Positions 24,368 through 45,047 of a stretch of DNA of 64,000 nt are shown piece after piece; position 1 is the first letter of the stretch, and the number at the start of each line of letters is the position of its first letter. The DNA is taken from positions 64,001 through 128,000 of the forward strand of contig CP060223.1 of assembly GCA_023898465.1 (NCBI GenBank), written 5' to 3'. The notes beneath the pieces were generated by a model. That model worked only from the letters and a program-made list of their open reading frames with translations. It had not been told where the DNA came from and searched no databases. A program made the position numbers and the translations under genes. The stretch comes from Candidatus Nomurabacteria bacterium. GTDB taxonomy: Bacteria; Patescibacteriota; Patescibacteriia; HK-STAS-PATE-3.

Positions 24368-25090
24368 ATGGCTGAGCAAAGCAGAAAAAAACCGATTATC
24401 GAACTCAAAAATATTATCAAAGAATTCCGAGTGGGGAAGAATACGATTCGTGTCCTTAAAGATATTAACGCACGAATTGAACCACAGGAGTTTATCATTA
24501 TTCTCGGACCATCTGGATCAGGAAAGTCGACGCTTTTGAATACCATAATTGGTTTAGAGCGCCCCACCTCCGGTCAAGTTTTGGTTGCGAATGAAGATCT
24601 CACTACACTCAGCTCTGATAAGTTGGCAGCTTTTCGTTTACAGAATTACGGCGTGGTATACCAGCGTCCTGACTGGATAAAAGCTTTGAATATCGTACAA
24701 AATGTAGCCTTTCCTTTAGCTATTGCAAATCATTCCATGACAGAAGCAATTCCTAAGGCAATCGAACTTCTAAAGCGCTTTGGTATGGACGATCATGCTG
24801 AATATGCGCCAAGCGAACTCTCTGGTGGACAACAACAGAAGTGCGAAATTGCTCGATCCTTAATAATGGATCCAGACATTGTTATTGCTGACGAGCCTAC
24901 AGGAAACCTGGATACTGATTCAGCTGAGCGCGTGATGAATATATTTACCGAATTGCGAGAAAAGGATAAGAAAACTGTAATCATGGTTACTCATAACATT
25001 GAATATGTTCGCTATGCGACCCATACTATTTATGTACGAGATGGTCGTGTATTAGAAGGTGAACAATCATTCGGCACAAAGAAGAAGTAG
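24368..25090 (+). CDS. ABC transporter ATP-binding protein, MacB/LolD/FtsE-type
   Basis: The Walker A motif is GPSGSGKST, the signature motif is LSGGQQQKCEIARSL, and the Walker B motif is IVIADEPTGNLD. It lies immediately upstream of the FtsX-domain permease. Confidence 0.85.
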   Translation: MAEQSRKKPIIELKNIIKEFRVGKNTIRVLKDINARIEPQEFIIILGPSGSGKSTLLNTIIGLERPTSGQVLVANEDLTTLSSDKLAAFRLQNYGVVYQRPDWIKALNIVQNVAFPLAIANHSMTEAIPKAIELLKRFGMDDHAEYAPSELSGGQQQKCEIARSLIMDPDIVIADEPTGNLDTDSAERVMNIFTELREKDKKTVIMVTHNIEYVRYATHTIYVRDGRVLEGEQSFGTKKK

Positions 25091-25093
25091 AGT

Positions 25094-26314
25094 ATGAAGT
25101 TTAGCTATATTGCTTTTCTCTCAACACAAAATTTGCGCAAACGTAAGCTGCGTAGCTTTTTGACAATTGGAGGTATGGCAATCGGTATCAGCTCAATTGT
25201 TTTCTTGGTTTCGCTTGGTTTTGGCTTACAGCGCCTCATTACCTCACAGGTAACTAATCTGGAAGCGCTTACCATACTTGATGTAAGTACCGGCACCTCA
25301 ACCTTGCTACAAATTGATGATGATCGCATTGCTGGCTTTAAAGAGATTCCTCACGTGCTTGATGTAAGTCCCTCGTACAGTATTTCTGGTCAGGTAGCCT
25401 ATACCGGGTCAGTCACTGATATTGCCATGTTTGGCATTCAACCGGAGTATGTAGGGCTAGAAGGTATAACACCGGCTTTTGGTCGAGTTTTTTCAATCCC
25501 TGATGGCAATGAAACAGTTATTAGCACTACGGCAGCTGAATTGCTTGGTGTTGAGGACTTTGCTTCTTTAATTGGCAAAACAGTTACGTATAGCGTTTCA
25601 GTAGAGCAAACGACTGATGAGAATGGCGCACCACTTGATCCAAATCTACCCCCACCGGCCCCTGAAGTAGTTGATTTTGATGTGGAGGTCATTGGAGTCG
25701 TGGATGATGAATTAACTCTAGCGTATTTACCTATTAGCATCTTGGAAATTACGCAACCAGAAAATTATGATTTAGCGCGCGTAAAAGTAGATAATAGAGA
25801 TAATCTGGTCGGTGTCCGCCAAGAAATTGAAGGGCTAGGGTATCAAGTTGATTCAGTGGCTGATACTGTTGGTCAGATTGATCGTATCTTCCTGGTCTTT
25901 GAAATAGTCATGGCTGGATTTGGCTTTATTGCCATGTTGGTCGCATCCTTGGGCGCATTTAACACCTTAACCGTTTCTTTACTTGAACGTACGCGTGAAG
26001 TAGGAATCATGAAGGCGTTAGGCACACCGAGTAAGGATGTGTACCGACTTTTCTTGAGCGAGTCATTTTTGATTGGATTTTCAGGTGGAAGCTTGGGAAT
26101 ATTAATAGGATATTCCTTAGGTGAAATTGCCAACGTGGTAGTAAATTATTTGGCGAATCGTTATGGTGGTCAATCAGTTGATATTTTCTTCACTCCATTT
26201 TTGCTCATTGTTGTCATTTTCTCAATTATCGTGTTGGTGAGTTTCTTGACTGGTGTTTATCCTGCTCGTCGTGCGTCTAAACTCAATCCTTTGGACGCTC
26301 TGCGCTACGAATAA
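25094..26314 (+). CDS. ABC transporter permease with FtsX-like domain (MacB-like: N-terminal TM, ~230-aa extracytoplasmic domain, 3 C-terminal TM)
   Basis: The order of hydrophobic segments fits this layout. The gene starts 4 nt after the ATPase. Confidence 0.75.
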   Translation: MKFSYIAFLSTQNLRKRKLRSFLTIGGMAIGISSIVFLVSLGFGLQRLITSQVTNLEALTILDVSTGTSTLLQIDDDRIAGFKEIPHVLDVSPSYSISGQVAYTGSVTDIAMFGIQPEYVGLEGITPAFGRVFSIPDGNETVISTTAAELLGVEDFASLIGKTVTYSVSVEQTTDENGAPLDPNLPPPAPEVVDFDVEVIGVVDDELTLAYLPISILEITQPENYDLARVKVDNRDNLVGVRQEIEGLGYQVDSVADTVGQIDRIFLVFEIVMAGFGFIAMLVASLGAFNTLTVSLLERTREVGIMKALGTPSKDVYRLFLSESFLIGFSGGSLGILIGYSLGEIANVVVNYLANRYGGQSVDIFFTPFLLIVVIFSIIVLVSFLTGVYPARRASKLNPLDALRYE

Positions 26315-31371: not shown

Positions 31372-31962
31372 ATGCAAAAGAACACCCTACAAGTCATCGC
31401 AATATTGGGCTTAAGCGTTCTCGTAGCACTCGAGCTCGCGCTACTCATTACCCGCTTTTTTGGCATAATTTCGCTAGAACAAGCCAAAAATGAGGAAAAA
31501 GCCAGTCAAAATACTGTGGTTGTGCTTTCTCCGCAAAAGCGGATCGAAGAAGTGCAAAGTATTGTTGCAGCATTGAAAGAGTATAACGAGGATCGCAAAA
31601 GCTATCCTAAGACGCTGCAAGGCTTAGTTCCGGCCTACTTATCAGGCCCAAGCGATCCGAGCACTGGATTTTCCGCCTATCGTTATGTCCCAATTGGTGA
31701 GCCGATTGAGTTTTACACGCTTACCTACACCATTACCGAGGACTACAACGAGCAATTACTGGCCGGCCAGCACGTGGCAAGTCCAAAAGGCTTAACTGGT
31801 GGAGAATTCCCACTAAGCGGCTCTGATTTAGATAATGATGGTGTGGATGACGCTGTAGAAATTTATGTCTATCGCACTGATAGTCAAAATCCTGACACTG
31901 ATAATGATGGATTCTCTGATGGTGTCGAGATTAGCAGCGGTCATAACCCACGAGGAAAATAG
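31372..31962 (+). CDS. type IV pilin/pseudopilin-like protein with C-terminal thrombospondin-type-3 Ca-binding repeats
   Basis: An N-terminal TM helix is followed by a GspG-like segment (IEEVQSIVAALKEYNEDRKSYPKTLQGLVPAYLS..PSDP). Two DxDxDGxxD repeats are present (DLDNDGVDDAVE, DTDNDGFSDGVE). There is no canonical G/FTLIE prepilin site. Confidence 0.45.
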   Translation: MQKNTLQVIAILGLSVLVALELALLITRFFGIISLEQAKNEEKASQNTVVVLSPQKRIEEVQSIVAALKEYNEDRKSYPKTLQGLVPAYLSGPSDPSTGFSAYRYVPIGEPIEFYTLTYTITEDYNEQLLAGQHVASPKGLTGGEFPLSGSDLDNDGVDDAVEIYVYRTDSQNPDTDNDGFSDGVEISSGHNPRGK

Positions 31963-31963
31963 T

Positions 31964-32728
31964 ATGGAATCTACGCAATCAACAACTTTTACAAGCAAAT
32001 TACTACGCCGCAAAGGCGTGGTCAGCATCGTGGTGTTATTGGCTCTGGCGATGAGCTACGGCGTGCTCTTAACTCAACCTTTTCTTTATCAGGCACGTGT
32101 GGAGCTGCTTATTATTCAGCAGCAGTCAGAGAATCAAGATTTACTCTCTGCACTTCGCGCCACTGAACAGGTTGGTAAAGGCTTAGTTGATGTTATTAGC
32201 ACCAGTTCATTCTTTGATAAGGTGCTGGCAACCGACTTTCCAATTACTGATGATTTCGGCACAAATCCGGAAGAGCGTCGCTTAGCTTGGCAAAAAACTG
32301 CCCATGCATCTATTTCTCAGCAATCTGGAATCTTAACAGTCACCGTGCTGCACAAGAATAAAGAGCAGGCAGCGGTGATTGCCCGCGGCGTGGCGCAAGT
32401 ACTTACCACCGAGAGTCAAGAGTTTCACGGTAAGGCAAATATCATTGTGAAGGTAGTAGATGATGTCTATACCAAGCAATGGCCTGTGCAACCAAACATT
32501 CTTGGTACTACCGTAGCCGCGCTTTTCTTTGGCATCATTGCCGGTGTTGGAATTGTCGCCCTCCTTCCTTTGCCAAAAGCAAAAGAAGCCGCGCCAGCAA
32601 TTCGTCGTACTGAAAATGATATGAGTGGAGCAGCGCCAAGTGCGCGAAAGACTTTGCATGAAATACGTATGAAGTCGACTCCGCCTCCGAGCCTACCGGG
32701 CATCGATGAAGAGGAAGACGATCTCTAA
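31964..32728 (+). CDS. Wzz/GumC-like polysaccharide chain-length determinant family protein
   Basis: It has N- and C-terminal TM helices flanking a ~170-aa domain. The ATG lies 2 nt after the upstream stop. Confidence 0.4.
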   Translation: MESTQSTTFTSKLLRRKGVVSIVVLLALAMSYGVLLTQPFLYQARVELLIIQQQSENQDLLSALRATEQVGKGLVDVISTSSFFDKVLATDFPITDDFGTNPEERRLAWQKTAHASISQQSGILTVTVLHKNKEQAAVIARGVAQVLTTESQEFHGKANIIVKVVDDVYTKQWPVQPNILGTTVAALFFGIIAGVGIVALLPLPKAKEAAPAIRRTENDMSGAAPSARKTLHEIRMKSTPPPSLPGIDEEEDDL

Positions 32729-32861
32729 CACGTCGTGCATTCTCAAGGGATGGAAGAGCTTCCATCCCGGAATGAGTGCGAGACCCGTACTCTGAACGTT
32801 GACAATTGAACGTATCAGGACTGGTTCCTGCATACGACGAGATAAACTTGGAGGTTTCCGT

Positions 32862-34085
32862 ATGCGCTGTTTGACCATGGCGTTGTGCCTTTGGCTCATC
32901 TTCGTGGCCAATGCGGCGCATGCAGGTGAGTATCAGAATCTCCGACCCGGTCCGCCGGTGTTGGAGCTGGGTGCGTTTTTCGCATCAACCTTTCCCGAAG
33001 CTCTACCACAGCTGCCAGCTGGCACGGTGGTAGCACACTTCCCGTGTCCGGTGCCGGCGACATTCGTGTTTGCCGATCGGAGTCTCCGCACCTACTCACT
33101 TCCGAGTGAGGCAAAGGTGGTGGCGACGGAGCTGCGTCGGGACGATGGTGGAGCGTACTACCAGTTGCTCTATCTCCTCTCGAATAAGCAGGCGAGCTAC
33201 GCGGAGCGATTCGCGTATCCGATCTGGCTGAATAGCGATCCGGTCTACGTCCCCAACAACACCAAACTCTTGGTATTGGAACGTGGTCCCGAGCAAGCGA
33301 CGGTTGTCACTTCTGCTCCTGTGACTGCGACACCGCAGCAGCAGGGTGAAGCGATCAAGACGACGCCGGTGGTGAGAAACACGCCCGTGTCCTCTGCGCC
33401 ATCGACTGGACGGGTTGAGGGTGAGCACATCATCCATCACCCCTTCATTCGCGGGCAGCTTGATTTGAGGACGGAGTTCCTCGGTGTGAAACCCGAGAAC
33501 ATCTTCACTCATCAAGTGATTCCATCGCTTTGGCTGAACCAACACCTTGGTTTGACCGGACGTTGGGAGCGGCACGAAGCGAAGGATCTCGATCCATCGC
33601 AGGGCTGGGGAGTCGGGCTCTGTTACCGGACAGCTCCTATACATCGATTGTCGGTCGAGTACGCTCGATTGACATTTGGTGAGATGAGTTCGTCCGGGCA
33701 AAGCATTCAGCTCGTGCATTTCGAATCCAGGCTACAAACCTGGTTCCTGCATCACGAGTTGGAAGCAGAGCAGCGGGATAACGACGCGAAGGAAGTTTGG
33801 ACTCGACTACGGTCGGGGCTTGCTTTCCAAGTCGGCTATCGTAGCCGGCTGCAGATGGGCGGAGAGTTAGCTAACCTGAACTACGAACTCGTAGCACAGG
33901 ACGGCTACTACTACGTGTCTGCACTTGGGACGCGCTTCAATCGATCTCACTACGGAGCATTTGCCAGCTTGGATACCCATCTGGGTGATCACTTCCCACT
34001 ACGACTTCTGGTCGGCGGCGGGAAGGGCAGTGTTCCAGAATGGAACTACATCAATGCCGAGCTGAGACTCGGAGTTGATTTCTGA
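32862..34085 (+). CDS. secreted OMP-like protein: signal peptide, N-domain, S/T/P linker, C-terminal beta-barrel-like domain ending in Phe
   Basis: The signal peptide is MRCLTMALCLWLIFVANAAHA, and a GGAGG RBS precedes the start. The C-terminal 230 aa show an alternating hydrophobic pattern and end in ...AELRLGVDF*. The GC content is high. Confidence 0.6.
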   Translation: MRCLTMALCLWLIFVANAAHAGEYQNLRPGPPVLELGAFFASTFPEALPQLPAGTVVAHFPCPVPATFVFADRSLRTYSLPSEAKVVATELRRDDGGAYYQLLYLLSNKQASYAERFAYPIWLNSDPVYVPNNTKLLVLERGPEQATVVTSAPVTATPQQQGEAIKTTPVVRNTPVSSAPSTGRVEGEHIIHHPFIRGQLDLRTEFLGVKPENIFTHQVIPSLWLNQHLGLTGRWERHEAKDLDPSQGWGVGLCYRTAPIHRLSVEYARLTFGEMSSSGQSIQLVHFESRLQTWFLHHELEAEQRDNDAKEVWTRLRSGLAFQVGYRSRLQMGGELANLNYELVAQDGYYYVSALGTRFNRSHYGAFASLDTHLGDHFPLRLLVGGGKGSVPEWNYINAELRLGVDF

Positions 34086-34335
34086 TGTACGAATCCTGGC
34101 CACTTGGTCAGTACTCATAACTCGTCGGGTGGTCAGGAGATCCGTAAGGATTTCTACAAAAGGACCTAAGGGTCCGCGACCTGTGCCGAACGCACACGGA
34201 GGACAACATGCGAAAGCGTGCTCCGCCGACTATCTGATGAGCTTGTGTAACTGACCATGCCCCAATCAACTTGTTTGGGGCTAGGGATTAACCTGCCCCG
34301 ACAACAAAAAATTGGGGCAAGCCAAGGAGGAAGCC

Positions 34336-35625
34336 TTGTTCAAGCTTCGCATCAGCGCGATCTTCGCGCTTCTCATCCTTCTGGGTGCCGGTCTCTATGG
34401 CTGCGCTCAGGAGCCCATCGTGTTCCAGCCCGATCAGGATGTGCCGACCGATCAGCTGCCGGGCGATGGCACAGCCACGCTCAGTCTGCAGATCGGCGGC
34501 GTACCGGCCCAGCACAATGGAGGCGCTTCGAGTGCTTTCATGGTGACCAATACGGTGCAGGTGATCGGCAACATCTTCCTCACCGGTGACCGACTGGACA
34601 CCGAGTGGAAGATGCAGAACTGGAGCAGCGGCGATGTCCAAATCCAGACCATGAACGGTCGTTGGTATTCGGTCGCTCCTTCGGTCGACGGCAACGTCCA
34701 GATCACCAACTTCCTCATCAACGACATCCAGCCGCAGCATTTCGTGCAGCTGGATGAGATGAAGGGGATCTTCGCCCAGGTCAAGCTGTTGCCGGATTCG
34801 TCTGGCTTCCAGTTGTATCAGCTCGAAGACAACCGGGATCAGCTGATGACGGTGCACTACCGAGTCTACGATCCTGCCCCGGCTGACTTCCAGGGACTCC
34901 AGATCGTGGGAACTTCCACGAACTGGAATCAGATGTATCCGGAGGCGATCTACAGCTCCGACTACGGTATCTGGGAGTGGTGGGGTCCGGCGTTGAAGGC
35001 GAGCGGCAACAAGGTCGCTTTCCGGATTCGCGGAAGTGGGGCTCTGCCGACCTCGTATTTGATCACTGCCCAAGGCGAAGTGAACGGTACGCCGGTTGGT
35101 GAAGAGGTCCAGCTCGACTGTACGGAGTTGGTGGAGAACGTGAATACGTACTTCGCCAGCACGACCTGGTTCACCGACCGCGGTTGGTTGGCTGGGAAGC
35201 GAGTCTACCGACTCATCATCCACGAAGATGGTGGTATCGAACAGGGATGCGGAGGCATCCCGATTCAGACGACCATCTCGATCACGAACAACCGCATTCC
35301 GCAGGATCACCACCTGATGTGTGTCTACGACGGCTACAACGACAATCAGCCGTTCGAGATTCCTCGGGTGAGCGGCAAGTGGGAAACCACGCAGATCACG
35401 CTCCATTCTGGTCCGGCGGCTCTGTCGGTCTGGGATACGAGTGACGGAGACAAGCCGATCATCACCACGGTGAAGATCGGCAGCCAGGAAGTGAAGCACC
35501 TCGAAGTGTTTCAGGATCCTGGTTCGGAGCCGACGGTTCACTTCACCTTCGTCCTTGGCGAGGGTCCGACCCTGCAACAGGGGACGGACAATCGCACTGG
35601 TACGATCGGAGGAGAGAACTACTAA
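34336..35625 (+). CDS. lipoprotein, unknown function
   Basis: The RBS aaggagg lies 5 nt before the TTG at 34336 (the ORF track uses TTG 34312). The lipobox is LLGAGLYGC. The antisense 456-aa ORF is Arg-rich and spurious. Confidence 0.6.
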   Translation: MFKLRISAIFALLILLGAGLYGCAQEPIVFQPDQDVPTDQLPGDGTATLSLQIGGVPAQHNGGASSAFMVTNTVQVIGNIFLTGDRLDTEWKMQNWSSGDVQIQTMNGRWYSVAPSVDGNVQITNFLINDIQPQHFVQLDEMKGIFAQVKLLPDSSGFQLYQLEDNRDQLMTVHYRVYDPAPADFQGLQIVGTSTNWNQMYPEAIYSSDYGIWEWWGPALKASGNKVAFRIRGSGALPTSYLITAQGEVNGTPVGEEVQLDCTELVENVNTYFASTTWFTDRGWLAGKRVYRLIIHEDGGIEQGCGGIPIQTTISITNNRIPQDHHLMCVYDGYNDNQPFEIPRVSGKWETTQITLHSGPAALSVWDTSDGDKPIITTVKIGSQEVKHLEVFQDPGSEPTVHFTFVLGEGPTLQQGTDNRTGTIGGENY

Positions 35626-35667
35626 TCGCCAGCCCTGGGAACGCTGACGATTGCACATTCTTGCCCC

Positions 35668-35712
35668 GCCCGCTACAACACTTTGTGTTGAAGCGCGGCG
35701 GGGCTTTCTTTT
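35668..35712 (+). terminator. intrinsic terminator (GC hairpin + ctttctttt)
   Basis: The sequence is gccccgcccgct...agcgcggcggggc followed by a T-run. A TTGACA promoter lies 70 nt downstream (35782). Confidence 0.5.
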
Positions 35713-36010
35713 ACCTTGGCAGGATGGAAATGTAACTAGTCTTCAAGTTCTGATGTTTGTTGAAGCAATGTTTCGTAGGGCTTGACAAAATAGCACTTTT
35801 CCTGCTAAAGTTCGCCGTTAACCAATGCGTAAAACCATCTAAAAAACGAACATTTTTACCACAACGACCTTAGTCGTTTGTGCTACTTATGGACATGAAT
35901 GGCTTGAGAAATGCCTAGCATTCCTCAACCGATTCTGGACCGGAAGTACTGCAGTAATTGTCATTCTTTGACAATTGAATTCAGAAGTCATTCTCACAGA
36001 GGAGGGTCTC

Positions 36011-37207
36011 ATGCGGACCTGGTATGTGGTTCTTGCGCTACTGGCGCTCGTCTCCTTTGGGTCCGCTCGGGCCCAGGTCATCGAAATCCCGATCGACTAC
36101 GTCGCGACGGATTCGGTGATTGCGAACTGGCCGCATCTCAACATCGGGGGCAACCCGGTGTACAAGAGCGGCTACCCGGCTGATTCCTTGGCAGTACATG
36201 CTGCTCGGGACGGCTGGTTCAAGACGACCTTCAACTTTCCCGTCGGGATCTACTGTCTCGATAAGGATGGGAAGATCATCAAGGGACGTGTCGAACCCGG
36301 ACAAACCATGAAGAATGGTGCCCGGGCCGATACGCTGATCGTGTCTATTCTAGCTGAGACGCCGGAGCAGACGCTGTATCAGATCCACGTTATTCAGGCG
36401 TGCGGTAACCCCGTGCTCTGGTCAGGCGTCGGTGTGTTGAAAGCACCGAAGCCGACTGGCCCACTGCCGCCGCCAACCCTGACTGTTCCGAAGCCCCCAG
36501 CACCACCTCCCATTGCGGAGACGGAGCCGCCGATCGTAGTAGAGCCTGAAAAACACTTCAGGCTACCGATCGATGGTTGGGCTGGAGTGGCAGGAAGTAA
36601 GTCACTCGAGTCCAAGGCTTGGTCGCTCTTCGAGGGCGTCTACATCGACTTTCCGTTGATCGTGGACAAGCTCACGTTCAAGTTTGGGGCGGCAACGTCT
36701 CAGGCAAACTACGAGAAGCTCCGTGGTCGGACGAGTTACCGAGGTGTTGGCGGCGATATGAGTCGCTGGCAAGTCGGCCTCTTCTACCGGCCTTGGGACA
36801 ACATCCAGGTTACCGGCCTGATTGGTCAGCAGTATGACCATAAGGCTGGCGACTGGCAGGATGGCGTCCAGCTGGAAGGAGTGCTGGGTTTCCCCATCGG
36901 TCGCTGGTGGAACGATGAGGATGTCAGCTACGGCACTACGACCAAAGCACTTTGGTTCCGCACTCGACATGCCTACAAGCTGTCGGGTGAAGGAATGCAT
37001 TGGTGGTCGATCGGCGGCGAGTTTGTCTATGACTCGTTCATGGACAACGATGGTCGATTCTACACTTCGCGCGTTCACGTATTTGGGAAGCGAGAGTTTC
37101 CCGGATTCTGGAATCGCGAGGCTGTCTTCATCTTCGGTGGCGGAAGAGGGAGTAAAGACGAGGCTTGGGGCCTCATAGCAGAACTAGGGCAGCGGCTCTG
37201 GTTCTAG
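36011..37207 (+). CDS. secreted OMP-like protein: signal peptide, N-domain, Pro-rich linker, C-terminal beta-barrel-like domain ending in Phe
   Basis: The signal peptide is MRTWYVVLALLALVSFGSARA, with a GGAGGG RBS. The linker is PKPTGPLPPPTLTVPKPPAPPPIAETEPP. It ends in ...GQRLWF*. The architecture matches the gene at 32862. Confidence 0.6.
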   Translation: MRTWYVVLALLALVSFGSARAQVIEIPIDYVATDSVIANWPHLNIGGNPVYKSGYPADSLAVHAARDGWFKTTFNFPVGIYCLDKDGKIIKGRVEPGQTMKNGARADTLIVSILAETPEQTLYQIHVIQACGNPVLWSGVGVLKAPKPTGPLPPPTLTVPKPPAPPPIAETEPPIVVEPEKHFRLPIDGWAGVAGSKSLESKAWSLFEGVYIDFPLIVDKLTFKFGAATSQANYEKLRGRTSYRGVGGDMSRWQVGLFYRPWDNIQVTGLIGQQYDHKAGDWQDGVQLEGVLGFPIGRWWNDEDVSYGTTTKALWFRTRHAYKLSGEGMHWWSIGGEFVYDSFMDNDGRFYTSRVHVFGKREFPGFWNREAVFIFGGGRGSKDEAWGLIAELGQRLWF

Positions 37208-37221
37208 AAGGGAGATTCCTG

Positions 37222-38385
37222 ATGCGTTTTCTCCGTTTCATGGCCGCTGCGCTGTTGCTGCTCGGTGCCTTCGGGTGCCAGAAGCTCCCCAGCGAGCCGA
37301 TCGACACCGGTGGCAGTCAGCCGCCGCAGGAGTACAACGGACCTGAGTCTGGTCTCGCGCTCAACTTCGAGCGTGGCGCCGGACAATACGAATTCGTTTC
37401 CGACATGTTCATCCATCAGGGTGGCGTGACGGATTGGGCGACTGTAACAGTCAACCCGGATAACTTCTTCCTCACCACCTACGCTGGACACTGGTATAGC
37501 GACATGCTGACCAGGGACGGTGTGCCGGTGCTGGGAGACTACACTCTGGCCGGTTCGACTCCGTCCAACTACTGGATGGATGAGAACCGCGGTGTTTTCG
37601 CGAGCCACATGGTTCTCGTCAGCGACGCTGACAGTGCCTGGGTCTGGCAGTGGCCCTCCAATGCCAGCCAGTTGGTCGACCTCGACATCGAGGTGCTCAA
37701 CTGGTCATCGGCAACGGATCTTGGCGTGGTCGGTACGCCGACGTGTTACGTCGTGCACCCGGCCATGTTGAACCACTTGCATGACAACGTCTACGGACGC
37801 TCGCTACGCCTCCTGCCCGGTGATGCCAAAATCGCTGTGATGGATATGTACGAGCGAGTTGGTCTGGGTGATGCAGTCACGGTCCGTATCAACGGCACCG
37901 AGCTGGTCGCCTACGTCGATGACTTCACGCATGACAACCAGCCGACGGTACATCGTTACTTCCGCTTTCACGTGAACGCGGATGGGACGGTGAGCTCGAT
38001 CGGTACTGAGAACCGATTCTCGTATGGGAACACGGTCTCGGTCAGCAATTCCAATATCGATCCCAGCGCTACGGTGTATCTCAACGGCACAGGCCTCACC
38101 AACGGTGAGATGATGCCGATGACCTATGTCGGCAGCTGGACCTGGCAGCTCACCGGTCTCACGACCTGGGTGGGCGAGCAGGATTTGAGGGTGAGTATGG
38201 AAGACGGGACTGGTGTGTTTCGTACCGTTCGCTTGAACGGAACGGAGTTGCACCACCTGGCTGCCGTGCCGCTCGACCCGGATCCTCCGATCCAGGTCTT
38301 CCGATGCACGCCCATGCATGACCACACGGTGATGCAGGGCGAGGACAACCGGGCCGCTGACATCGGCATGGAGACCGGCGGATGA
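37222..38385 (+). CDS. lipoprotein, unknown function
   Basis: The lipobox is LLLLGAFGCQK. An RBS gaagggag is present. Confidence 0.6.
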   Translation: MRFLRFMAAALLLLGAFGCQKLPSEPIDTGGSQPPQEYNGPESGLALNFERGAGQYEFVSDMFIHQGGVTDWATVTVNPDNFFLTTYAGHWYSDMLTRDGVPVLGDYTLAGSTPSNYWMDENRGVFASHMVLVSDADSAWVWQWPSNASQLVDLDIEVLNWSSATDLGVVGTPTCYVVHPAMLNHLHDNVYGRSLRLLPGDAKIAVMDMYERVGLGDAVTVRINGTELVAYVDDFTHDNQPTVHRYFRFHVNADGTVSSIGTENRFSYGNTVSVSNSNIDPSATVYLNGTGLTNGEMMPMTYVGSWTWQLTGLTTWVGEQDLRVSMEDGTGVFRTVRLNGTELHHLAAVPLDPDPPIQVFRCTPMHDHTVMQGEDNRAADIGMETGG

Positions 38386-39869
38386 GCGAAGAAGGTGATG
38401 CGACAAGTCGTGAGGTGCCTCCCCAAGTAAGAGAGGTACTTCGCCAAATGCAACGAGTCGCGAAGAGAGATCGCAAAAAGAAGGCGAAGCATCGAGCCCG
38501 CAGAGAGGAACGGAAAAAACAGGCAAAGGCAAGAGTGAAAGCTCGAACGGGTGAGCAGTCAACAGGTTCTCCAAGGAAAGGAGATGAACCTCGTCGTCCT
38601 GTTCCGCCGCCTCAGCCTGCACCAAGTGCTTCGCCGTCCTACGCATCTCTACTGGGAGATAAGCTTGGGGGAATTCCTCAAGTAAGACGAAATCCGAAGA
38701 GAGCAGAAACAAACCTGGGAGGCTCGCCGAGCTTCCCCCAAGATGAGGAGGGTCATGTAATGCCCGAGGTGTCCATGCGCGAAGAAGGAGGATCGAGGAA
38801 GCTTTTGATTGCCACTGTGGCGATCTTGTGCGTCCTCTTGGTCGGGGTGCTGATCTACACGCATCCCTGGAGTCCTCAGCAAGGTCTGACGGAGACCGAG
38901 GTGTCGGATATGATCAGGGAGTTCGCTGATCAGATGCCGGCTCCGGTCGCTGAAATCCCCGATGACGTGGTACGCAAGGGTGACCTTGCTTCGATGCAGC
39001 CGGCGGCGATCACTCTCAGCGCTTTCGACGAGACCTATCTCGATACGCTGTGGGCGACGGTCAAGGATCCGGTGACCGGGAAGATCGACTCGACGATGGT
39101 CGTGAAGACCCGGACGAGGAATCCCATCACTGATTTGCAGAAGGACGTGAAGAGTACCAATGCCGAGGCTCGTGCAGCCAAGGTTGCGGCACGGAATGCG
39201 GAGAAGCGTCTCAAGGAGACGCCGACCCAATTCGCCGTGACCGTGCCTTCGACTTCCACATCGACTTCGCTTCACCAGCCTGGTGGAGTGCAGTTGGGTG
39301 GTACCACGACCACGACGGCGCCTGTGCAGATGACGACTCGAACGAGTACGCAAGCCGGGCTGGTGGCTGGTACGATCGGAGGTGGTTCGCCGCCCCCGCC
39401 GCCGGCTAGCAACGTCGCTGTGTCCATGACTACCACGATGGTTCCGGCCGGTGAACAGGTGATGGGTGGGGACGGCTTGATGAAGCAGGGTCCGGCCGTT
39501 GCCTTTGTCTACAACGGTCAGACCTACGTTCGTCGGGATCTGGTGCAGCGCAACAAGTACGGCGACCCGATCAACCCCAGTCGAGCTGACCAGAACTTCT
39601 ACGTGATGGCCGGCGAGCAGGGGATGAACTGGAAGCTCGTCAATCCGGCCAAGCAGAAGATGACGGTCCAGGGCGACTATTTGGTCTGGCCTGGCGTGAT
39701 CAAAGGTCCTTTCCAGGTCGGCTGGGTGGATCCGAACGACCCGGCCTACATGCCTGAAAGTGGCGTAGTCTGGGCTCCGATCGCTGAGTTCTACTCCGGC
39801 TACGACGGGACCTTCTGTCGTGACCCCGACTATCAGTTGAGGGCTGTGGCGATCCAGCAGATGCCGTAG
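38382..39869 (+). CDS. membrane-anchored protein: K/R-rich cytoplasmic N-tail, one TM, T/S/P-rich region, C-terminal ~130-aa domain shared with the gene at 40047
   Basis: An ATGA overlap joins it to the upstream gene. The TM is LLIATVAILCVLLVGVLIY. The C-terminal segment GPAVAFVYNGQTYVRRDLVQRNKYGDPINP...GDYLVWPGVIKGPFQVGWVDPNDP...VWAPIAEFYSG aligns with residues ~265-375 of the next gene. Confidence 0.6.
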   Translation: MSEEGDATSREVPPQVREVLRQMQRVAKRDRKKKAKHRARREERKKQAKARVKARTGEQSTGSPRKGDEPRRPVPPPQPAPSASPSYASLLGDKLGGIPQVRRNPKRAETNLGGSPSFPQDEEGHVMPEVSMREEGGSRKLLIATVAILCVLLVGVLIYTHPWSPQQGLTETEVSDMIREFADQMPAPVAEIPDDVVRKGDLASMQPAAITLSAFDETYLDTLWATVKDPVTGKIDSTMVVKTRTRNPITDLQKDVKSTNAEARAAKVAARNAEKRLKETPTQFAVTVPSTSTSTSLHQPGGVQLGGTTTTTAPVQMTTRTSTQAGLVAGTIGGGSPPPPPASNVAVSMTTTMVPAGEQVMGGDGLMKQGPAVAFVYNGQTYVRRDLVQRNKYGDPINPSRADQNFYVMAGEQGMNWKLVNPAKQKMTVQGDYLVWPGVIKGPFQVGWVDPNDPAYMPESGVVWAPIAEFYSGYDGTFCRDPDYQLRAVAIQQMP

Positions 39870-39897
39870 TCCGCGACTGCAACGTTCTTTACTTCAA

Positions 39898-39936
39898 CCC
39901 CCGCTATATCTACGGATGTAGCGGGGCTTTCTTTTT
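39898..39936 (+). terminator. intrinsic terminator (cccccgcta-N12-tagcgggg + T-run)
   Basis: A perfect 8-bp stem is followed by ctttcttttt. Confidence 0.7.
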
Positions 39937-39943
39937 ACTATGC

Positions 39944-39972
39944 TTGACAAAATGCCAAAAATAGCATACTAT
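39944..39972 (+). promoter_or_regulatory. sigma70 consensus-like promoter (TTGACA-N17-TACTAT)
   Basis: The sequence is cttgacaaaatgccaaaaatagcaTACTAT, 75 nt upstream of the 40047 start. Confidence 0.6.
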
Positions 39973-40046
39973 AGCCGGTTCTTTTTGCACCTCACAATCT
40001 AGTTACACAAGCGAGAGACACTACACATCCCAACCGGGAGGACTAC

Positions 40047-41225
40047 ATGCTCCAACGTTTCTTTGCGTGGTCTTTGCTGGCGCTCTTCGCCTTCGGCTGT
40101 GCCGGAGGTAGTGCCACGCTGAAGCAGCATCAGCAGCCCGTCGGGCAGGTCTACGTGGGCGACTGCGTGCCGTCGGATGGCATTCATCCGACTGGCTACC
40201 TTCGCCTGACCAAGCCGCCGGAGGACTTCAACTCGATGCTGTCGATGTGGCACGCTGTTCAGGCCGAGGGTTCATCCGAGCCCTCGAAGATCGAGGTCGA
40301 CTACATCCGGGTCTACGCCCACGTAGCCGGCCGCGATTCACTGCTCGACAGCGACGAGTACAACGACATGATCGGGGACGGAGGTCTCTATCTTCGTCAT
40401 CCCTCGTGGTTCTACAACGATGACCATACGAGTCTGCCCTGCGAGTTCGACATGGTCAACGGTTACTTGGTCTTGCGACCGAGCGACTACCCGGATCGAG
40501 TCTTTCACTGGTGGAATTCCTACCATCCAGCGGAGGATGTCTGGCGTGTCACTATTCCGGCCGGTGCTACCAACTGCTGGGCAGAGACTCGGATTCGGAT
40601 TACGGGTCCAGCCTATGTCCAGGGCGGCATTGACTACTGGCGTTCACTCACTGCTCCGTACGGCGGCGTCGAAGTGAACAACCGGGAAGCCTGCATGTCC
40701 AACTGGACTTGCTCGGCTGATCCGGGTTGGCAGACCATCGTGGTTGGTAAGGACAAGCCGCAGGGCGACAGCGCTGTGGTCGATGCCGATGAGAACGGGA
40801 AACCGAAAGTCGTCCAGGCTCCGGTCTACGATCCTTTCGAGAGCAAGGCCGACGGTCTCCTCAAGAAAGGCGCTGCTGTCTGTTTTGTACAAGACGGACG
40901 CACCTACTTCCCGAAGGAGATCGTGGCGACGAACAAGTACAGCGATCCGGCTCGCCCCAAGAATGGCAAGTACTACTTGCTGGGCGGGGTGAAGCCATGG
41001 GCTATCGCCGGCGACGATCAAGAGCTCCGGGAAAACGGGGATTACCTCTACTATCCCGGCGTGGTCGACAAGGTGTGTCAGGTGGGCTGGGAGGATCCGG
41101 CCGACGCTTCGGCCGATCCGTCCGGAACCGTATGGAGCGCTTCAGCGGAACTTTTCTCGGGTCGCCCGGGATCAGTTTCGAAGAACGGTCAGTACGGCTA
41201 CCTGCCAGTCAATCTCTCCAACTAG
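40047..41225 (+). CDS. lipoprotein with C-terminal domain paralogous to the gene at 38382
   Basis: The lipobox is LLALFAFGCAGGS, with a GGGAGG RBS. The C-terminal segment AVCFVQDGRTYFPKEIVATNKYSDPARP...GDYLYYPGVVDKVCQVGWEDPAD...VWSASAELFSG aligns with the upstream gene. Confidence 0.6.
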   Translation: MLQRFFAWSLLALFAFGCAGGSATLKQHQQPVGQVYVGDCVPSDGIHPTGYLRLTKPPEDFNSMLSMWHAVQAEGSSEPSKIEVDYIRVYAHVAGRDSLLDSDEYNDMIGDGGLYLRHPSWFYNDDHTSLPCEFDMVNGYLVLRPSDYPDRVFHWWNSYHPAEDVWRVTIPAGATNCWAETRIRITGPAYVQGGIDYWRSLTAPYGGVEVNNREACMSNWTCSADPGWQTIVVGKDKPQGDSAVVDADENGKPKVVQAPVYDPFESKADGLLKKGAAVCFVQDGRTYFPKEIVATNKYSDPARPKNGKYYLLGGVKPWAIAGDDQELRENGDYLYYPGVVDKVCQVGWEDPADASADPSGTVWSASAELFSGRPGSVSKNGQYGYLPVNLSN

Positions 41226-41334
41226 GAGAAGGTGATTCACCCCGGTGCATGCAATGCGTGCGCCGGGTTTTCTTATTGACCATGGGCAATATTTTTGCTA
41301 TAGTCGCCTGTTCACTTTCTTTTACTGAGTTGTA

Positions 41335-43107
41335 ATGTTACGCAATATTCTTGTCATTCTCGGACTCGCCATTTCACTCACCAGCTTCACGCCAAAGCAG
41401 GAGAGTCGCGATGGCGTGTATGCGTTTACCACGCCTCCTTTAAGTATTGGTCAAGGAGTGGTGGTGACAAATGATGGCATTGTGATTGGCGATGGCGTGA
41501 CTGATTCCCGGCAAGGAATACAGGAGCTGCTTAGTGGTGATGACTTGGAACATTTTCTTGACCAAAGCTCTCAGCAGTTTGATGCCGTAGAGCTGCGTAT
41601 CTGGACATGGTTCCTGGGTCAAAACGATTTTACTATTGGCACGGTGAATAATTTCCTTGCCCGTGCTCATGCCCACGGCTTGCAAGTGTACTTAAATACT
41701 TGGGAATATCCTGGCACACATCCCGACCTTCTGCCTGCTGAGTATCAGGCATATAAACTTGCTGACACCGGACAACGCGTGCCGGCCCTAGTGAATGATG
41801 GACAAATCAGCGCGCAGCACATTGATAAAGCAAACCCCGCTGCACTGGAATGGATGAGTGGGCAACTGCGGAGTGCGCTGACTTCTTTTGACGTTTTCGA
41901 TGGATACCTCATTGTTGAGGATAGGGTTTCCGATTGGGTGCATGGGTCTTTCCCACAGTATGTACGTTATTGGGATTCACCGACCTATTCCGATGCAGCG
42001 CTTGATTCATTTCAACATTATCTCCTACTGCATGGTCAGGATGCAACACAGCGATTCCCAGTGGATCGTCCGGAGTTAGTTTCTCAATTCACCCAGTATG
42101 TTCCTTCAGCCCCAGAAAGTGCTTTATGGAAGTATTGGTATCAATGGCGCTTTGAACTTTTTGCTGACTATGTGGAGAGTCTGAGTAATGCGGTGAAGTC
42201 AGTGCAAAGGGTGCCAGTGCTTTACATGCCTTGGCAACGTGTGGTGGATGAATTTGATTACGCCTACGCTGATGATTGGTCAGCCAATCGTTGGGATGTT
42301 GGATACGGTCCGGGCAATCCCGAGAATGCCATCTTCGGCGTCTCGCTTCACACCCTGGCAAAACGCGGATCAATTGATGCCTACGTGCATGAATTTGGAG
42401 AGGATGGTACGCATGAGCTCTGGCCAATGTCTTTTAATGCGCTGCAGTTAGAAAAAGCCAAAATTGCTTTGTCAGATTCTTATGTTACCCTAGGCAGCTT
42501 TATTCAATTTTTTAATTACGAAGGTAGAGAAATAGTTTCCCCTGAACTACTTCAAGATGCCTTAGCCATCGGACGGCAAAACGAGGCAAAGATTTTTGTA
42601 GCTTACGATGTTGCCACACTGTATGATCGTTCAGGTCGCTATGATGCACATACCTCAGCGCTTTGGCAGCAAGCAAGAACACATGCATATGCCATTGATG
42701 AAGAGGAAATCCGAAACGCAAGTCAGCTAGCGCCAGCGCAGGTTTTTGCTCGAAAATTACCTGAACAGATTCCAGAAGGAGTGGCCGCCTGGACTGCCGA
42801 TGATGGGTATGTGTATGTGCGGACCGAGGCTCTGCCCGGTAACGGACCATACTATGTCGTATACGATCACTGGAATGCACCACTACTTGATGCGCAGCAC
42901 CTTATGGAATACTATCCAGAGCATGGTTTAGTCGCTATACATGCTGATGGGTTAAAAGGCGCTGCTTTTCAAATCATTACTCCGGGACCGCAGGGTAGCG
43001 TCGCGTGGTCAGAAATTCGTGAACAGCTTTGTGAGCTGGGGTATCAAGGGATCGTATGTAGCCCAAATAGTTGGCTTTATCAACCAGTGGGGCTTCATTC
43101 CATGTAG
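41335..43107 (+). CDS. secreted protein, putative TIM-barrel glycoside hydrolase-like (tentative)
   Basis: The signal peptide is MLRNILVILGLAISLTSF. NTWEYPG and YLIVEDRVSDW are possible clan GH-A acid/nucleophile-like motifs. A terminator and a promoter (TTGACC-N17-TATAGT) lie upstream. Confidence 0.35.
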   Translation: MLRNILVILGLAISLTSFTPKQESRDGVYAFTTPPLSIGQGVVVTNDGIVIGDGVTDSRQGIQELLSGDDLEHFLDQSSQQFDAVELRIWTWFLGQNDFTIGTVNNFLARAHAHGLQVYLNTWEYPGTHPDLLPAEYQAYKLADTGQRVPALVNDGQISAQHIDKANPAALEWMSGQLRSALTSFDVFDGYLIVEDRVSDWVHGSFPQYVRYWDSPTYSDAALDSFQHYLLLHGQDATQRFPVDRPELVSQFTQYVPSAPESALWKYWYQWRFELFADYVESLSNAVKSVQRVPVLYMPWQRVVDEFDYAYADDWSANRWDVGYGPGNPENAIFGVSLHTLAKRGSIDAYVHEFGEDGTHELWPMSFNALQLEKAKIALSDSYVTLGSFIQFFNYEGREIVSPELLQDALAIGRQNEAKIFVAYDVATLYDRSGRYDAHTSALWQQARTHAYAIDEEEIRNASQLAPAQVFARKLPEQIPEGVAAWTADDGYVYVRTEALPGNGPYYVVYDHWNAPLLDAQHLMEYYPEHGLVAIHADGLKGAAFQIITPGPQGSVAWSEIREQLCELGYQGIVCSPNSWLYQPVGLHSM

Positions 43108-43135
43108 GGAGTTCTTTGTCAGAGGAGGAGTGAAT

Positions 43136-43600
43136 ATGCAGTGGAGGTTGTGGATCTACGTGTTGGCTTGCGTACTGTGCGCATCGCAGTCTGCGTACGG
43201 TCAGTCTGAGCAATTCCAGCCAATGTACAGCATAGCGCCAGAGTATCCACTTTCAGCGTGGATTGCTGGTGAGTCTGGGTCGGTGATGGTGGGAATGCAG
43301 ATTGACCCGGTCGGCCGTGTGGAGGAGGTCTGGGTTCAGTCTTCAACAAGCTCGTTGTTTGAGCGGTATGCGCTCGAGGCGGCGAAGCAGTGGGTTTTTG
43401 TACCGATCATGCCCATGGTGGATCTGATCGACGCGGTGGATGGCGTTATGGTCTTGCGTAGAATTCCGGAGCTTGAAACAGCGAGTTACCTGGAAACACA
43501 TCCGGGAATCATTGACAGTCTCGTCTACGAGTGGACGGAAAAACAGGACCAACCGTCCCCGGTCCGTAGCGTCAGTATCCCTTTCAATTTCAACCACTAA
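43136..43600 (+). CDS. secreted TonB C-terminal domain protein (stand-alone, no Pro-rich/TM part)
   Basis: The RBS agaggagg precedes the start, and a signal peptide is present. The motif YSIAPEYPLSAWIAGESGSVMVGMQIDPVGRVEEVWVQSSTSSLFERYALEAAKQWVFVP matches the TonB_C fold signature (YP..A...G.SG.V.V.F.I...G.V). Confidence 0.55.
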   Translation: MQWRLWIYVLACVLCASQSAYGQSEQFQPMYSIAPEYPLSAWIAGESGSVMVGMQIDPVGRVEEVWVQSSTSSLFERYALEAAKQWVFVPIMPMVDLIDAVDGVMVLRRIPELETASYLETHPGIIDSLVYEWTEKQDQPSPVRSVSIPFNFNH

Positions 43601-43832: not shown

Positions 43833-44221
43833 TAACTTAAGAAATCAAGGTAAATGCCAATAAGAATGGCCAGTGTTGAAGAGGTAAATATGACAATATA
43901 GTTCCAGCGTTCTTTCGATGAGCCAAGCGTTGTAAAGATATAACGCATTGCAGATCGCTCTTCCTCTGATAGGTTATCAAGTGATTGAATACGTTCAGCG
44001 AGCTTATATTCAGCAATGACACGCGCTCTTTTTTTCGCAACTTGGTAACGATGCAAAAAATAGAGCACAAAACCGACCGTACCAAAATACCAGACCACTT
44101 GCACCCAAACTGTTCCGATATTGTTCAGTACAATAATACTGCGATAGGCGATGGTGGCAAGTATGCCTATCCAAAAAAAGAGTAAGCGAAGTCCTGCCGA
44201 ATGAGGTTTCAAGGTTTCCAT
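43832..44221 (-). CDS. membrane protein (129 aa, ~3 TM), unknown function
   Basis: Its start ATG overlaps the flavodoxin stop (taATGg). Confidence 0.4.
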   Translation of the reverse strand: METLKPHSAGLRLLFFWIGILATIAYRSIIVLNNIGTVWVQVVWYFGTVGFVLYFLHRYQVAKKRARVIAEYKLAERIQSLDNLSEEERSAMRYIFTTLGSSKERWNYIVIFTSSTLAILIGIYLDFLS

Positions 44222-44700
44222 TACTTGCTGTTTGCTTTATCTAGTACATGTGTAGCCCAGGCCTGTACACGCTGACGATTTTTATCCAAATCGTAGAAAT
44301 AATGAAGCAGCCGAAGTGTTGCGCCTATCTTTTTTCCACCTACATCAGTAACCAATTTTTCGAGGTGGTCAGCAGCCGCGCAAGTTTCTTGATACGATTC
44401 GTCACCTAATCCGTAGACAGCAAAATTTTGCTTATGCAAGGAGACGCCATGAAGTTTTTCAACCAGTTCCCGCATATGTTGTTGCAGTTGACCTTCTAGA
44501 CGTTTACCATCTTCAGTAATATGTTCCCAGGTACAGGAGCCTAGGAAAACAAAATCCGGCTGGCGAAGCTCCTCTGCTTGTACAGAATCGGCCCGGCGGA
44601 TATGTACGGTGTGTCCAGCTTCTTGCCAGACTGATGCGATTTGTTTGGCCACGTCCAGCGTGCCGCCGGAATTCGTGCCATAGACAATGAAAACCTCCAT
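44221..44700 (-). CDS. flavodoxin (short-chain)
   Basis: The N-terminal flavodoxin signature is MEVFIVYGTNSGGT. It is ~159 aa. The longer ORF to 44919 runs through the tRNA gene and is rejected. Confidence 0.7.
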   Translation of the reverse strand: MEVFIVYGTNSGGTLDVAKQIASVWQEAGHTVHIRRADSVQAEELRQPDFVFLGSCTWEHITEDGKRLEGQLQQHMRELVEKLHGVSLHKQNFAVYGLGDESYQETCAAADHLEKLVTDVGGKKIGATLRLLHYFYDLDKNRQRVQAWATHVLDKANSK

Positions 44701-44792
44701 ATATATATAGTGTACGGTATTTTCTCGCATTCGGCTACTGTAGGATGTTGTAAAAAAGAAAAAGAACGGACACATAGCCCATTCTTTTTCTT

Positions 44793-44867
44793 TGGCTCCG
44801 GGGACAGGGATCGAACCTGCGACCAAGTGGTTAACAGCCACCTGCTCTACCACTGAGCTACCCCGGA
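44793..44867 (-). tRNA. tRNA-Asn (anticodon GTT), CCA encoded
   Basis: The reverse complement is TCCGGGGTAGCTCAGTGGTAGAGCAGGTGGCTGTTAACCACTTGGTCGCAGGTTCGATCCCTGTCCCCGGAGCCA. It has a 7-bp acceptor stem, a D-arm, an anticodon loop CTGTTAA and a T-arm GGTTCGATCC. Confidence 0.85.
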
Positions 44868-45047
44868 ATACACCCACTTGAACGAAGCCTAGTGTAGCGT
44901 GCTCAGCCTTTCTTGGCAACTATAGGCTTGAAAGAATAAGGCATTGACAAATGTATCATATATAGTATGATGGAATTGCTTGTTAGCTCTTTGCATCAAC
45001 GAGACACGTTGTTCGGCAAAGCTGACATCTAGAAAAAGGAGTATGAG

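Follow-up and report, generated by a model that had tools for sequence, protein, structure and literature searches.

What can a protein domain of about 125 residues contribute when it closes two neighboring proteins whose remaining parts are unrelated? This question is raised by two genes in a 64,000-nucleotide (nt) stretch of DNA, hereafter the window, that spans positions 64,001 to 128,000 of the forward strand of contig CP060223.1 (assembly GCA_023898465.1). NCBI labels the source as a metagenome-assembled genome (MAG) of a Candidatus Nomurabacteria bacterium, within the candidate phyla radiation (CPR), and the window elsewhere holds chromosomal genes for RpoD, DnaG, GroEL, and PEP synthase. 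Gene A (38382..39869, + strand) is an open reading frame (ORF) of 495 amino acids (aa) for a membrane-anchored protein; gene B (40047..41225, + strand), which comes next, encodes a lipoprotein of 392 aa. B is an exact match to NCBI entry USN53627.1 (H6760_00430), and A, when read from an alternative start at 38760, yields the 369-aa protein USN53626.1 (H6760_00425), likewise an exact match. Both proteins, as well as the product of the gene that follows B (USN53628.1), are annotated as hypothetical.

The two proteins align by BLASTP between residues 364 to 493 of A (39471..39860, + strand) and residues 269 to 392 of B (40851..41222, + strand), with identity at 49 of 130 positions (38%), 55% positives, and an E value of 1e-21. 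A hidden Markov model (HMM) of the domain matches these copies at E=2e-53 and E=5e-52, respectively. Every other segment paired between A and B has an E value above 1, and the N-terminal parts are unrelated. A sequence-only reading of this DNA had proposed exactly this arrangement, with a transmembrane (TM) and T/S/P-rich N-terminal part in A and a lipoprotein in B; the peptide pairs it quoted from the two proteins align as it gave them, and the shared domain recurs in orthologs from other samples. No third copy was found in the window by tblastn or by a 12-sequence HMM run over all six frames of the 64 kb, the next match having an E value of 0.9.

How widely is this domain distributed? When 1.84 billion cluster representatives were scanned exhaustively with HMMER, the kind of search that the sequence-only reading had called for, 14 matches were returned, 12 of which are true members, both window proteins included. 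The remaining two, P0009 and P0012, were rejected as repeat-driven false positives (hhalign probability, <1%). The 10 further homologs are independent and align across the whole domain. A word-indexed search of 5.8 billion proteins gave no match with a profile of the two window copies and recovered only three distant members with the 12 sequences. Using a four-sequence alignment, we found the domain in none of 185,579 GTDB species genomes (searched also with full-length B), nowhere in IMG/VR, and at a single locus among JGI metagenome contigs.

Curated collections were equally silent. Neither A nor B has a match in Pfam-A, NCBIfam, PHROGs, or PADLOC; the 12 family members matched no Pfam family, and a Pfam-A scan of them at E<=1 gave no carbohydrate-binding module (CBM) family; and a PDB sequence profile search with the domain returned nothing significant. 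PHROGs and PADLOC were also negative for the distant members P0010, P0011, and P0014, and no anti-phage defense or phage family containing the domain emerged from PADLOC, PHROGs, IMG/VR, or BFVD. We found no account of the domain or of its gene cluster in the literature. On these searches, the domain constitutes a very small, previously undescribed family, which agrees with the initial failure to place it in any recognized one. No profile assigned it to GH16 or to the concanavalin A-like lectin/glucanase sandwiches, the outcome that had been named in advance as fatal to that claim, and no jelly-roll fold emerged either. The probability that the similarity is an artifact of chance, low complexity, or a miscalled frame is close to nil in view of the pairwise E value, the 10 full-length homologs, a confident fold prediction, and conserved synteny (the last two described below).

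The N-terminal parts of the two proteins bear on where the domain would be displayed. For A, the start at 38382 overlaps the upstream stop codon as ATGA, and the start at 38760, which is the one chosen by NCBI, has a strong GAGGAGGG ribosome-binding site; the C-terminal domain is unaffected by either choice. A single TM helix (residues 141 to 159, LLIATVAILCVLLVGVLIY; 38802..38858, + strand; Kyte-Doolittle peak of 2.99 over residues 136 to 165) is preceded by a basic N-terminal tail, with the N terminus predicted to be cytoplasmic. Between helix and domain lies a stalk (39159..39470, + strand) that begins as a helical stretch rich in Ala/Lys and continues as a T/S/P-rich linker. B has a GGGAGG ribosome-binding site 6 nt 5' of its start and begins with a lipoprotein signal peptide that ends at Cys18 (LALFAFGC; 40047..40100, + strand); its ortholog P0003 has the canonical lipobox LVSGC. 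Given the N-terminal anchor of each protein, a TM helix after a basic tail in A and a lipoprotein signal in B, both should present the shared domain outside the cytoplasmic membrane.

The linker of A also contains the motif GLVAGTIGGGSPPPPP (39357-39404), which is common to the A-type orthologs P0005 and P0006. In all three proteins, it takes the form G[LI]VxGTIGG followed by 5 to 6 prolines and lies just upstream of the domain; it is absent from the A-type protein P0004. This element could be a hinge, a processing site, or a modification site.

We then turned to structure prediction, another step suggested by the sequence-only reading. AlphaFold2 supplied with the two sequences only gave an unusable model (predicted local distance difference test [pLDDT], 52). 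With the 12-sequence alignment, the model was confident (pLDDT, 89.6; predicted template modeling score, 0.82) and consisted of about 10 beta strands plus short helices. Foldseek comparison found nothing significant in the PDB (best E=0.11) or among viral models (best E=0.46). The best structural neighbors, all weak, are CBMs, with fibronectin-III and cytokine-receptor folds scoring nearly as high. The domain is best described as a predicted immunoglobulin-like or CBM-like beta-sandwich.

Among the closest known systems are the CBM48 and CBM20 modules (AMPK-beta glycogen-binding, GlgB N-terminal, glucoamylase starch-binding, laforin, and SEX4), in which sugar-binding site 1 consists of two surface tryptophans. 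The curated models for these modules (Pfam CBM_48, AMPK1_CBM, and CBM_20) match neither A nor B nor any of the 12 members. Nonsignificant local alignments paired the family sequence FYLxGG..W with VYLxGS..W of the CBMs, and hhalign placed W63 opposite W100 of AMPK-beta1 at a probability of 0.5%. For these comparisons, the CBM48 reference sequence was verified to be identical to 1z0m. Homology to CBM48/CBM20 is a lead, not an established relationship.

The invariant residues of the family alignment are rich in aromatics (W63, W94, W110, and Y130). Q91 and E115 are likewise invariant but polar, in contrast to the hydrophobic or aromatic character of the other conserved positions, and a W-x-D-P-x-D loop is conserved. 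These polar features would suit a small enzyme, such as one acting on a wall polymer by cleavage or modification, with Gln91 and Glu115 as its catalytic residues. We consider an enzyme very unlikely, as the domain resembles no catalytic family in sequence or fold and its structural neighbors are all noncatalytic sandwich modules. Four members have Cys at both position 90 and position 108, where three others have F/V (or F/I), a pattern that looks like a disulfide replaceable by hydrophobic contacts. In the model, a Cys90-Cys108 bond fits the adjacent predicted strands 90-94 and 108-110, and such a putative disulfide also fits an oxidizing, extracytoplasmic location.

Is the domain tied to its partner regions, or does it move among them? 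The N-terminal domain of B (residues ~40 to 235; 40164..40751, + strand) comprises about 190 residues with the motifs IEVDYIRVY, HWWN, GIDYWR, and VNNREA. A search with this domain gave 19 hits, 16 of which are further homologs in other bacteria and the rest B's own lineage. The motifs shared across these homologs (EVDYxRxY, HWW, GIDYWR, and VNNxEAG) include conserved polar positions that could mark an active or binding site. Some homologs stand alone, mostly as lipoproteins (P0020, P0022, and P0024); in others, the fusion partner is a dockerin (P0025), a TIG domain (P0027), or a set of three DUF4214 repeats (P0021); and in a Bacteroidota-like group of ~442 aa, the domain is flanked by a module on its N-terminal side and by a C-terminal tail of a different type. 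A PDB profile search with the B N-terminal domain was negative, and the genomic contexts of P0022 and P0025 were uninformative. The B N-terminal domain belongs to a second, wider family without annotation. None of the further homologs bears the shared C-terminal domain. Since the B N-terminal domain occurs elsewhere alone or in other fusions and never with the shared domain, the latter is best regarded as a lineage-specific accessory.

In this respect, the shared domain fills the same kind of accessory slot on B that dockerin, TIG, and DUF4214 fill on the related proteins. It differs from dockerin, a small calcium-binding helical module, in having no sequence or fold relation to it and in being present just twice at each locus, with no known cohesin-like partner.

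The distant family members carry the domain in still other settings. In P0014, the domain is joined to a TM helix and a Pro-rich linker, and the gene lies between a KAP-family NTPase gene and DUF8370/DUF8371, DUF4411, and M78-HTH genes. P0010 combines the domain with a TM helix and other regions. P0011 is a small stand-alone protein encoded after a TraG/TrwB-like ATPase, in an element with an integrase and a resolvase; the idea that it is the tail of the preceding TM protein was rejected, as two in-frame TAA stops lie between them. These distant loci (L004, 5987-6661; L005, 4687-5127; L006, 8246-8629) are variable or mobile contexts in other bacteria. Taken together, the domain appears to be a portable accessory module, usually carried on a membrane tether.

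The position of the domain at the extreme C terminus of proteins with differing N-terminal parts is also what would be expected of a sorting or secretion signal, similar to those of the type IX secretion system (T9SS), that is recognized and perhaps removed by an export or anchoring machine. T9SS sorting domains are small beta-sandwiches as well, and the Bacteroidota-like B-N-domain homologs P0028 to P0034, which have a different tail, show a faint T9SS type C signal (E=0.006, below the cutoff). Such signals usually mark many cargos, and only two copies of the domain are present in the window and at each related locus spanning both genes. Moreover, both proteins already have an N-terminal membrane anchor, no Pfam or NCBIfam sorting domain (T9SS or other) is matched, and no T9SS or sortase-like component was recognized in the cluster. 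A sorting signal is, on balance, highly improbable.

An A-type gene is directly followed by a B-type gene in four lineages, with 36 to 47% identity: the window, L008 (a groundwater scaffold, with P0004 and then P0003), L011 (P0005 and then P0007), and L012/L013. In the last of these, L012 holds P0006 and then a B-type fragment, and L013 holds the C terminus of a B-type protein (P0008) followed by a homolog of the window's 590-aa gene. At the related loci that span both genes, the 12-sequence HMM finds exactly two domain copies. The pair closes the same gene cluster in all three lineages with enough flanking DNA.

We next examined the history of the copies by neighbor joining of all 12 domains. 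In the resulting tree, a cluster with 77.5% bootstrap unites the B-type copies from the window, L011, and L013, the A-type copies form a loose group, and four distant proteins constitute the outgroup. This grouping by type argues that the duplication is old and predates the split of these lineages. The L008 pair departs from this pattern. Its B-type domain, in P0003, is 62% identical to that of the neighboring A-type protein P0004, groups with it at 95.5% bootstrap, carries the A-type motif GTFCRDPDY, and sits away from the other B-type copies. In L008, the B copy was overwritten by the neighboring A copy with the gene retained. As overwriting occurred without loss of the gene, the A and B copies look functionally interchangeable.

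The domain swap in L008 suits a homotypic interface as well as it suits a shared ligand, and this brings in the possibility that the domain docks proteins together. The copies on A and B would then bind either one another or a common protein made by the cluster, which would tie the lipoprotein to the tip of a TolA- or TonB-like stalk within a lineage-specific envelope apparatus. Strict A-then-B adjacency in four lineages, at the close of a cluster of secreted, lipid-anchored, and TM proteins, is consistent with docking, and edge-to-edge pairing is common in beta-sandwiches, with the fibronectin-III and cytokine-receptor folds scoring near the CBMs. The layout of A does resemble that of TonB and TolA: a short cytoplasmic tail, one TM helix, a long linker that includes an Ala/Lys helix and a run of prolines, and a globular domain at the C terminus. 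Two genes downstream of B, gene 43019 (43019-43600) encodes a protein with a clear TonB_C domain (E=3e-11).

The resemblance to TonB and TolA has limits. The C-terminal domain of A matches neither TonB_C (PF03544) nor TolA domain III in Pfam and is predicted to be nearly all beta, whereas TonB_C is a mixed alpha/beta domain. Pfam and NCBIfam scans of the cluster identified no partner of the ExbB/ExbD or TolQ/TolR type. The organism is also labeled CPR, a group whose cells have so far been described as monoderm (PMC8871954). An obligate A-B pair is disfavored by the distant members P0014, P0011, and P0010, which are single-copy proteins in unrelated contexts with no second copy nearby. A and B also appear to have their own expression signals, all of them pattern matches only from consensus scans: a terminator-like hairpin after A (39899..39926, + strand; 12-bp stem and then a T run), a promoter-like site upstream of B (39944..39972, + strand; TTGACA-17-TACTAT), a terminator-like hairpin after B (41241..41267, + strand; 12-bp stem with 9 G-C pairs and then a T run), and a further promoter-like site upstream of the gene following B. 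We regard docking as the main alternative, and as less likely than not.

With a probability of roughly 0.4, we favor a reading in which the domain serves outside the cytoplasm as an accessory module for binding or targeting and directs both A and B to a common ligand, a glycan being the likeliest candidate. The domain would fold independently as an extracytoplasmic beta-sandwich and be carried on two different membrane-tethered proteins. A would hold it at the tip of a long stalk built from the TM helix, the helical stretch, and the T/S/P-rich poly-Pro linker; B, as a lipoprotein, would carry it behind a separate domain of ~190 residues. In this way, A and B could be brought to one ligand, a glycan polymer either of the cell's own envelope or of the surface of a host cell. 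Such a role would parallel that of carbohydrate- and wall-binding modules, which serve proteins with different business ends.

This proposal draws on the predicted sandwich with its CBM neighbors and on the aromatic invariants, together with the add-on placement of the domain, its predicted tethering outside the cytoplasm, and the apparent interchangeability of its copies. Several observations weigh against it. Profile comparison of the family with the CBM48 and CBM20 sequences was not significant (probability, 0.5%), and global alignment gave nothing. No glycan-active enzyme was recognized in the cluster by Pfam, NCBIfam, or PDB profile scans. In addition, neither a signal peptide nor a TM helix is apparent in P0011, one of the distant members. 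The sequence-only reading had suggested a new binding module of an envelope island. The family does prove to be new, and binding gains indirect support from the sandwich model, the weak CBM neighbors, the add-on position, and the interchangeability of the copies.

The island part of that suggestion fared less well. The genes do encode envelope proteins and include a block of anomalous GC content, as described below. The cluster is also syntenic, however, together with its upstream neighbors, in three divergent lineages: in L008 and L011, the upstream genes are orthologous and in the window's order, starting from a Host_attach/baeRF12 gene. Because synteny extends to these upstream neighbor genes, the idea of a mobile island is weakened, and the locus appears to be a conserved, lineage-specific envelope cluster rather than an obviously mobile one.

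The upstream part of the cluster consists of six genes (31372..38385, + strand), as established by Pfam and NCBIfam matches, topology, and the orthologs in L008 and L011. The first (31372-31962, + strand) encodes a protein of 196 aa that has a TM helix at the N terminus, a segment that by eye resembles a pseudopilin of type II secretion, and, at the C terminus, calcium-binding TSP3 repeats (Pfam E=2e-6). This gene, with 62 to 65% identity across lineages, is the best conserved of the cluster. It is followed on the + strand by genes for a Wzz-like protein with two TM helices (31865; 50 to 55% identity), a secreted protein (32799), a lipoprotein (34312), a second secreted protein (35975), and a second lipoprotein (37165), and the L008 and L011 orthologs of the last four are 26 to 46% identical. 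After B comes a gene for a 590-aa secreted protein (41335..43107, + strand) with no Pfam, NCBIfam, or PDB match. It is 40% identical over 572 aa to the 612-aa protein that follows the B-type gene in L013. All products of the cluster carry a signal peptide, a lipobox, or TM helices. Pfam and NCBIfam recognize no family in the cluster beyond the TSP3 and Wzz-like matches, and PDB profile searches with the 35975 family and with the 34312/37165 family were negative.

Six consecutive genes, from 32799 through B (32.8 to 41.2 kb), have a GC content of 56 to 60%, versus ~46 to 47% in the rest of the window. The cluster genes 31372 and 31865, just upstream of this block, are at 46 to 47%, and the related loci have 53 to 60% GC overall. 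This anomaly could reflect replacement by DNA of a higher-GC relative or an effect of amino acid composition.

Within the same block, the lipoproteins 34312 and 37165 are paralogs (22.6% identity over 345 aa, E=1e-9), and the secreted proteins 32799 and 35975 are weakly alike over their C-terminal ~90 residues (hhalign E=4.5e-4; probability, 33%). The region 32799-38385 looks like a tandem duplication of a two-gene unit. The secreted proteins end in ...LRLGVDF (34065-34085) and ...GQRLWF (37187-37207), respectively, both of which resemble the C-terminal signal of outer-membrane beta-barrels, and neither matches an outer-membrane protein family model in Pfam. These C termini, like the TonB_C domain downstream, are odd for a genome labeled CPR.

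A more far-reaching possibility, which we consider a long shot, is that the domain is the coupling piece of an unseen envelope apparatus in a small clade of Parcubacteria, in which stalk A and lipoprotein B dock with each other or onto a host glycan during episymbiotic attachment. Such an apparatus would comprise the pilin-like TSP3 protein, the Wzz-like protein, the two barrel-like secreted proteins, the two paralogous lipoproteins, A, and B. If the barrel-like proteins were true outer-membrane proteins, then an outer-membrane-like layer in a CPR bacterium would be implied.

Other features of the window lie to either side of the cluster. Very large secreted proteins (as long as 1713 aa) with fn3, DUF2341, and Laminin_G_3 modules are encoded in a row at 42-24318, and an ABC ATPase and a MacB/FtsX-type permease follow at 24368-26314. 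Repeated GC-rich blocks with strongly negative GC skew occur at 6 to 8, 10 to 12, 16 to 18, and 22 to 24 kb. Just beyond the right end of the envelope cluster is a tRNA-Asn gene (44793-44867), which is overlapped on the same strand by a flavodoxin-domain ORF (44221-44919). Given this overlap, the true start of the flavodoxin ORF must lie further downstream.

CPR bacteria are abundant, uncultured, and mostly dependent on host cells, and to our knowledge, how their surfaces are constructed and how they attach remain largely unknown. Taken alone, the domain is one more orphan beta-sandwich module, of a common fold type and in genomes that are rich in orphan surface proteins; its importance would depend on the ligand being a component of the host surface or of the envelope that is central to the CPR lifestyle. 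What is defined here is a new, extremely rare family of surface domains, a conserved orphan envelope cluster of about ten genes, and a second, wider domain family that elsewhere is fused to dockerin. With a confident model of 125 residues and two natural carriers, the domain offers usable targets for work on binding and localization.

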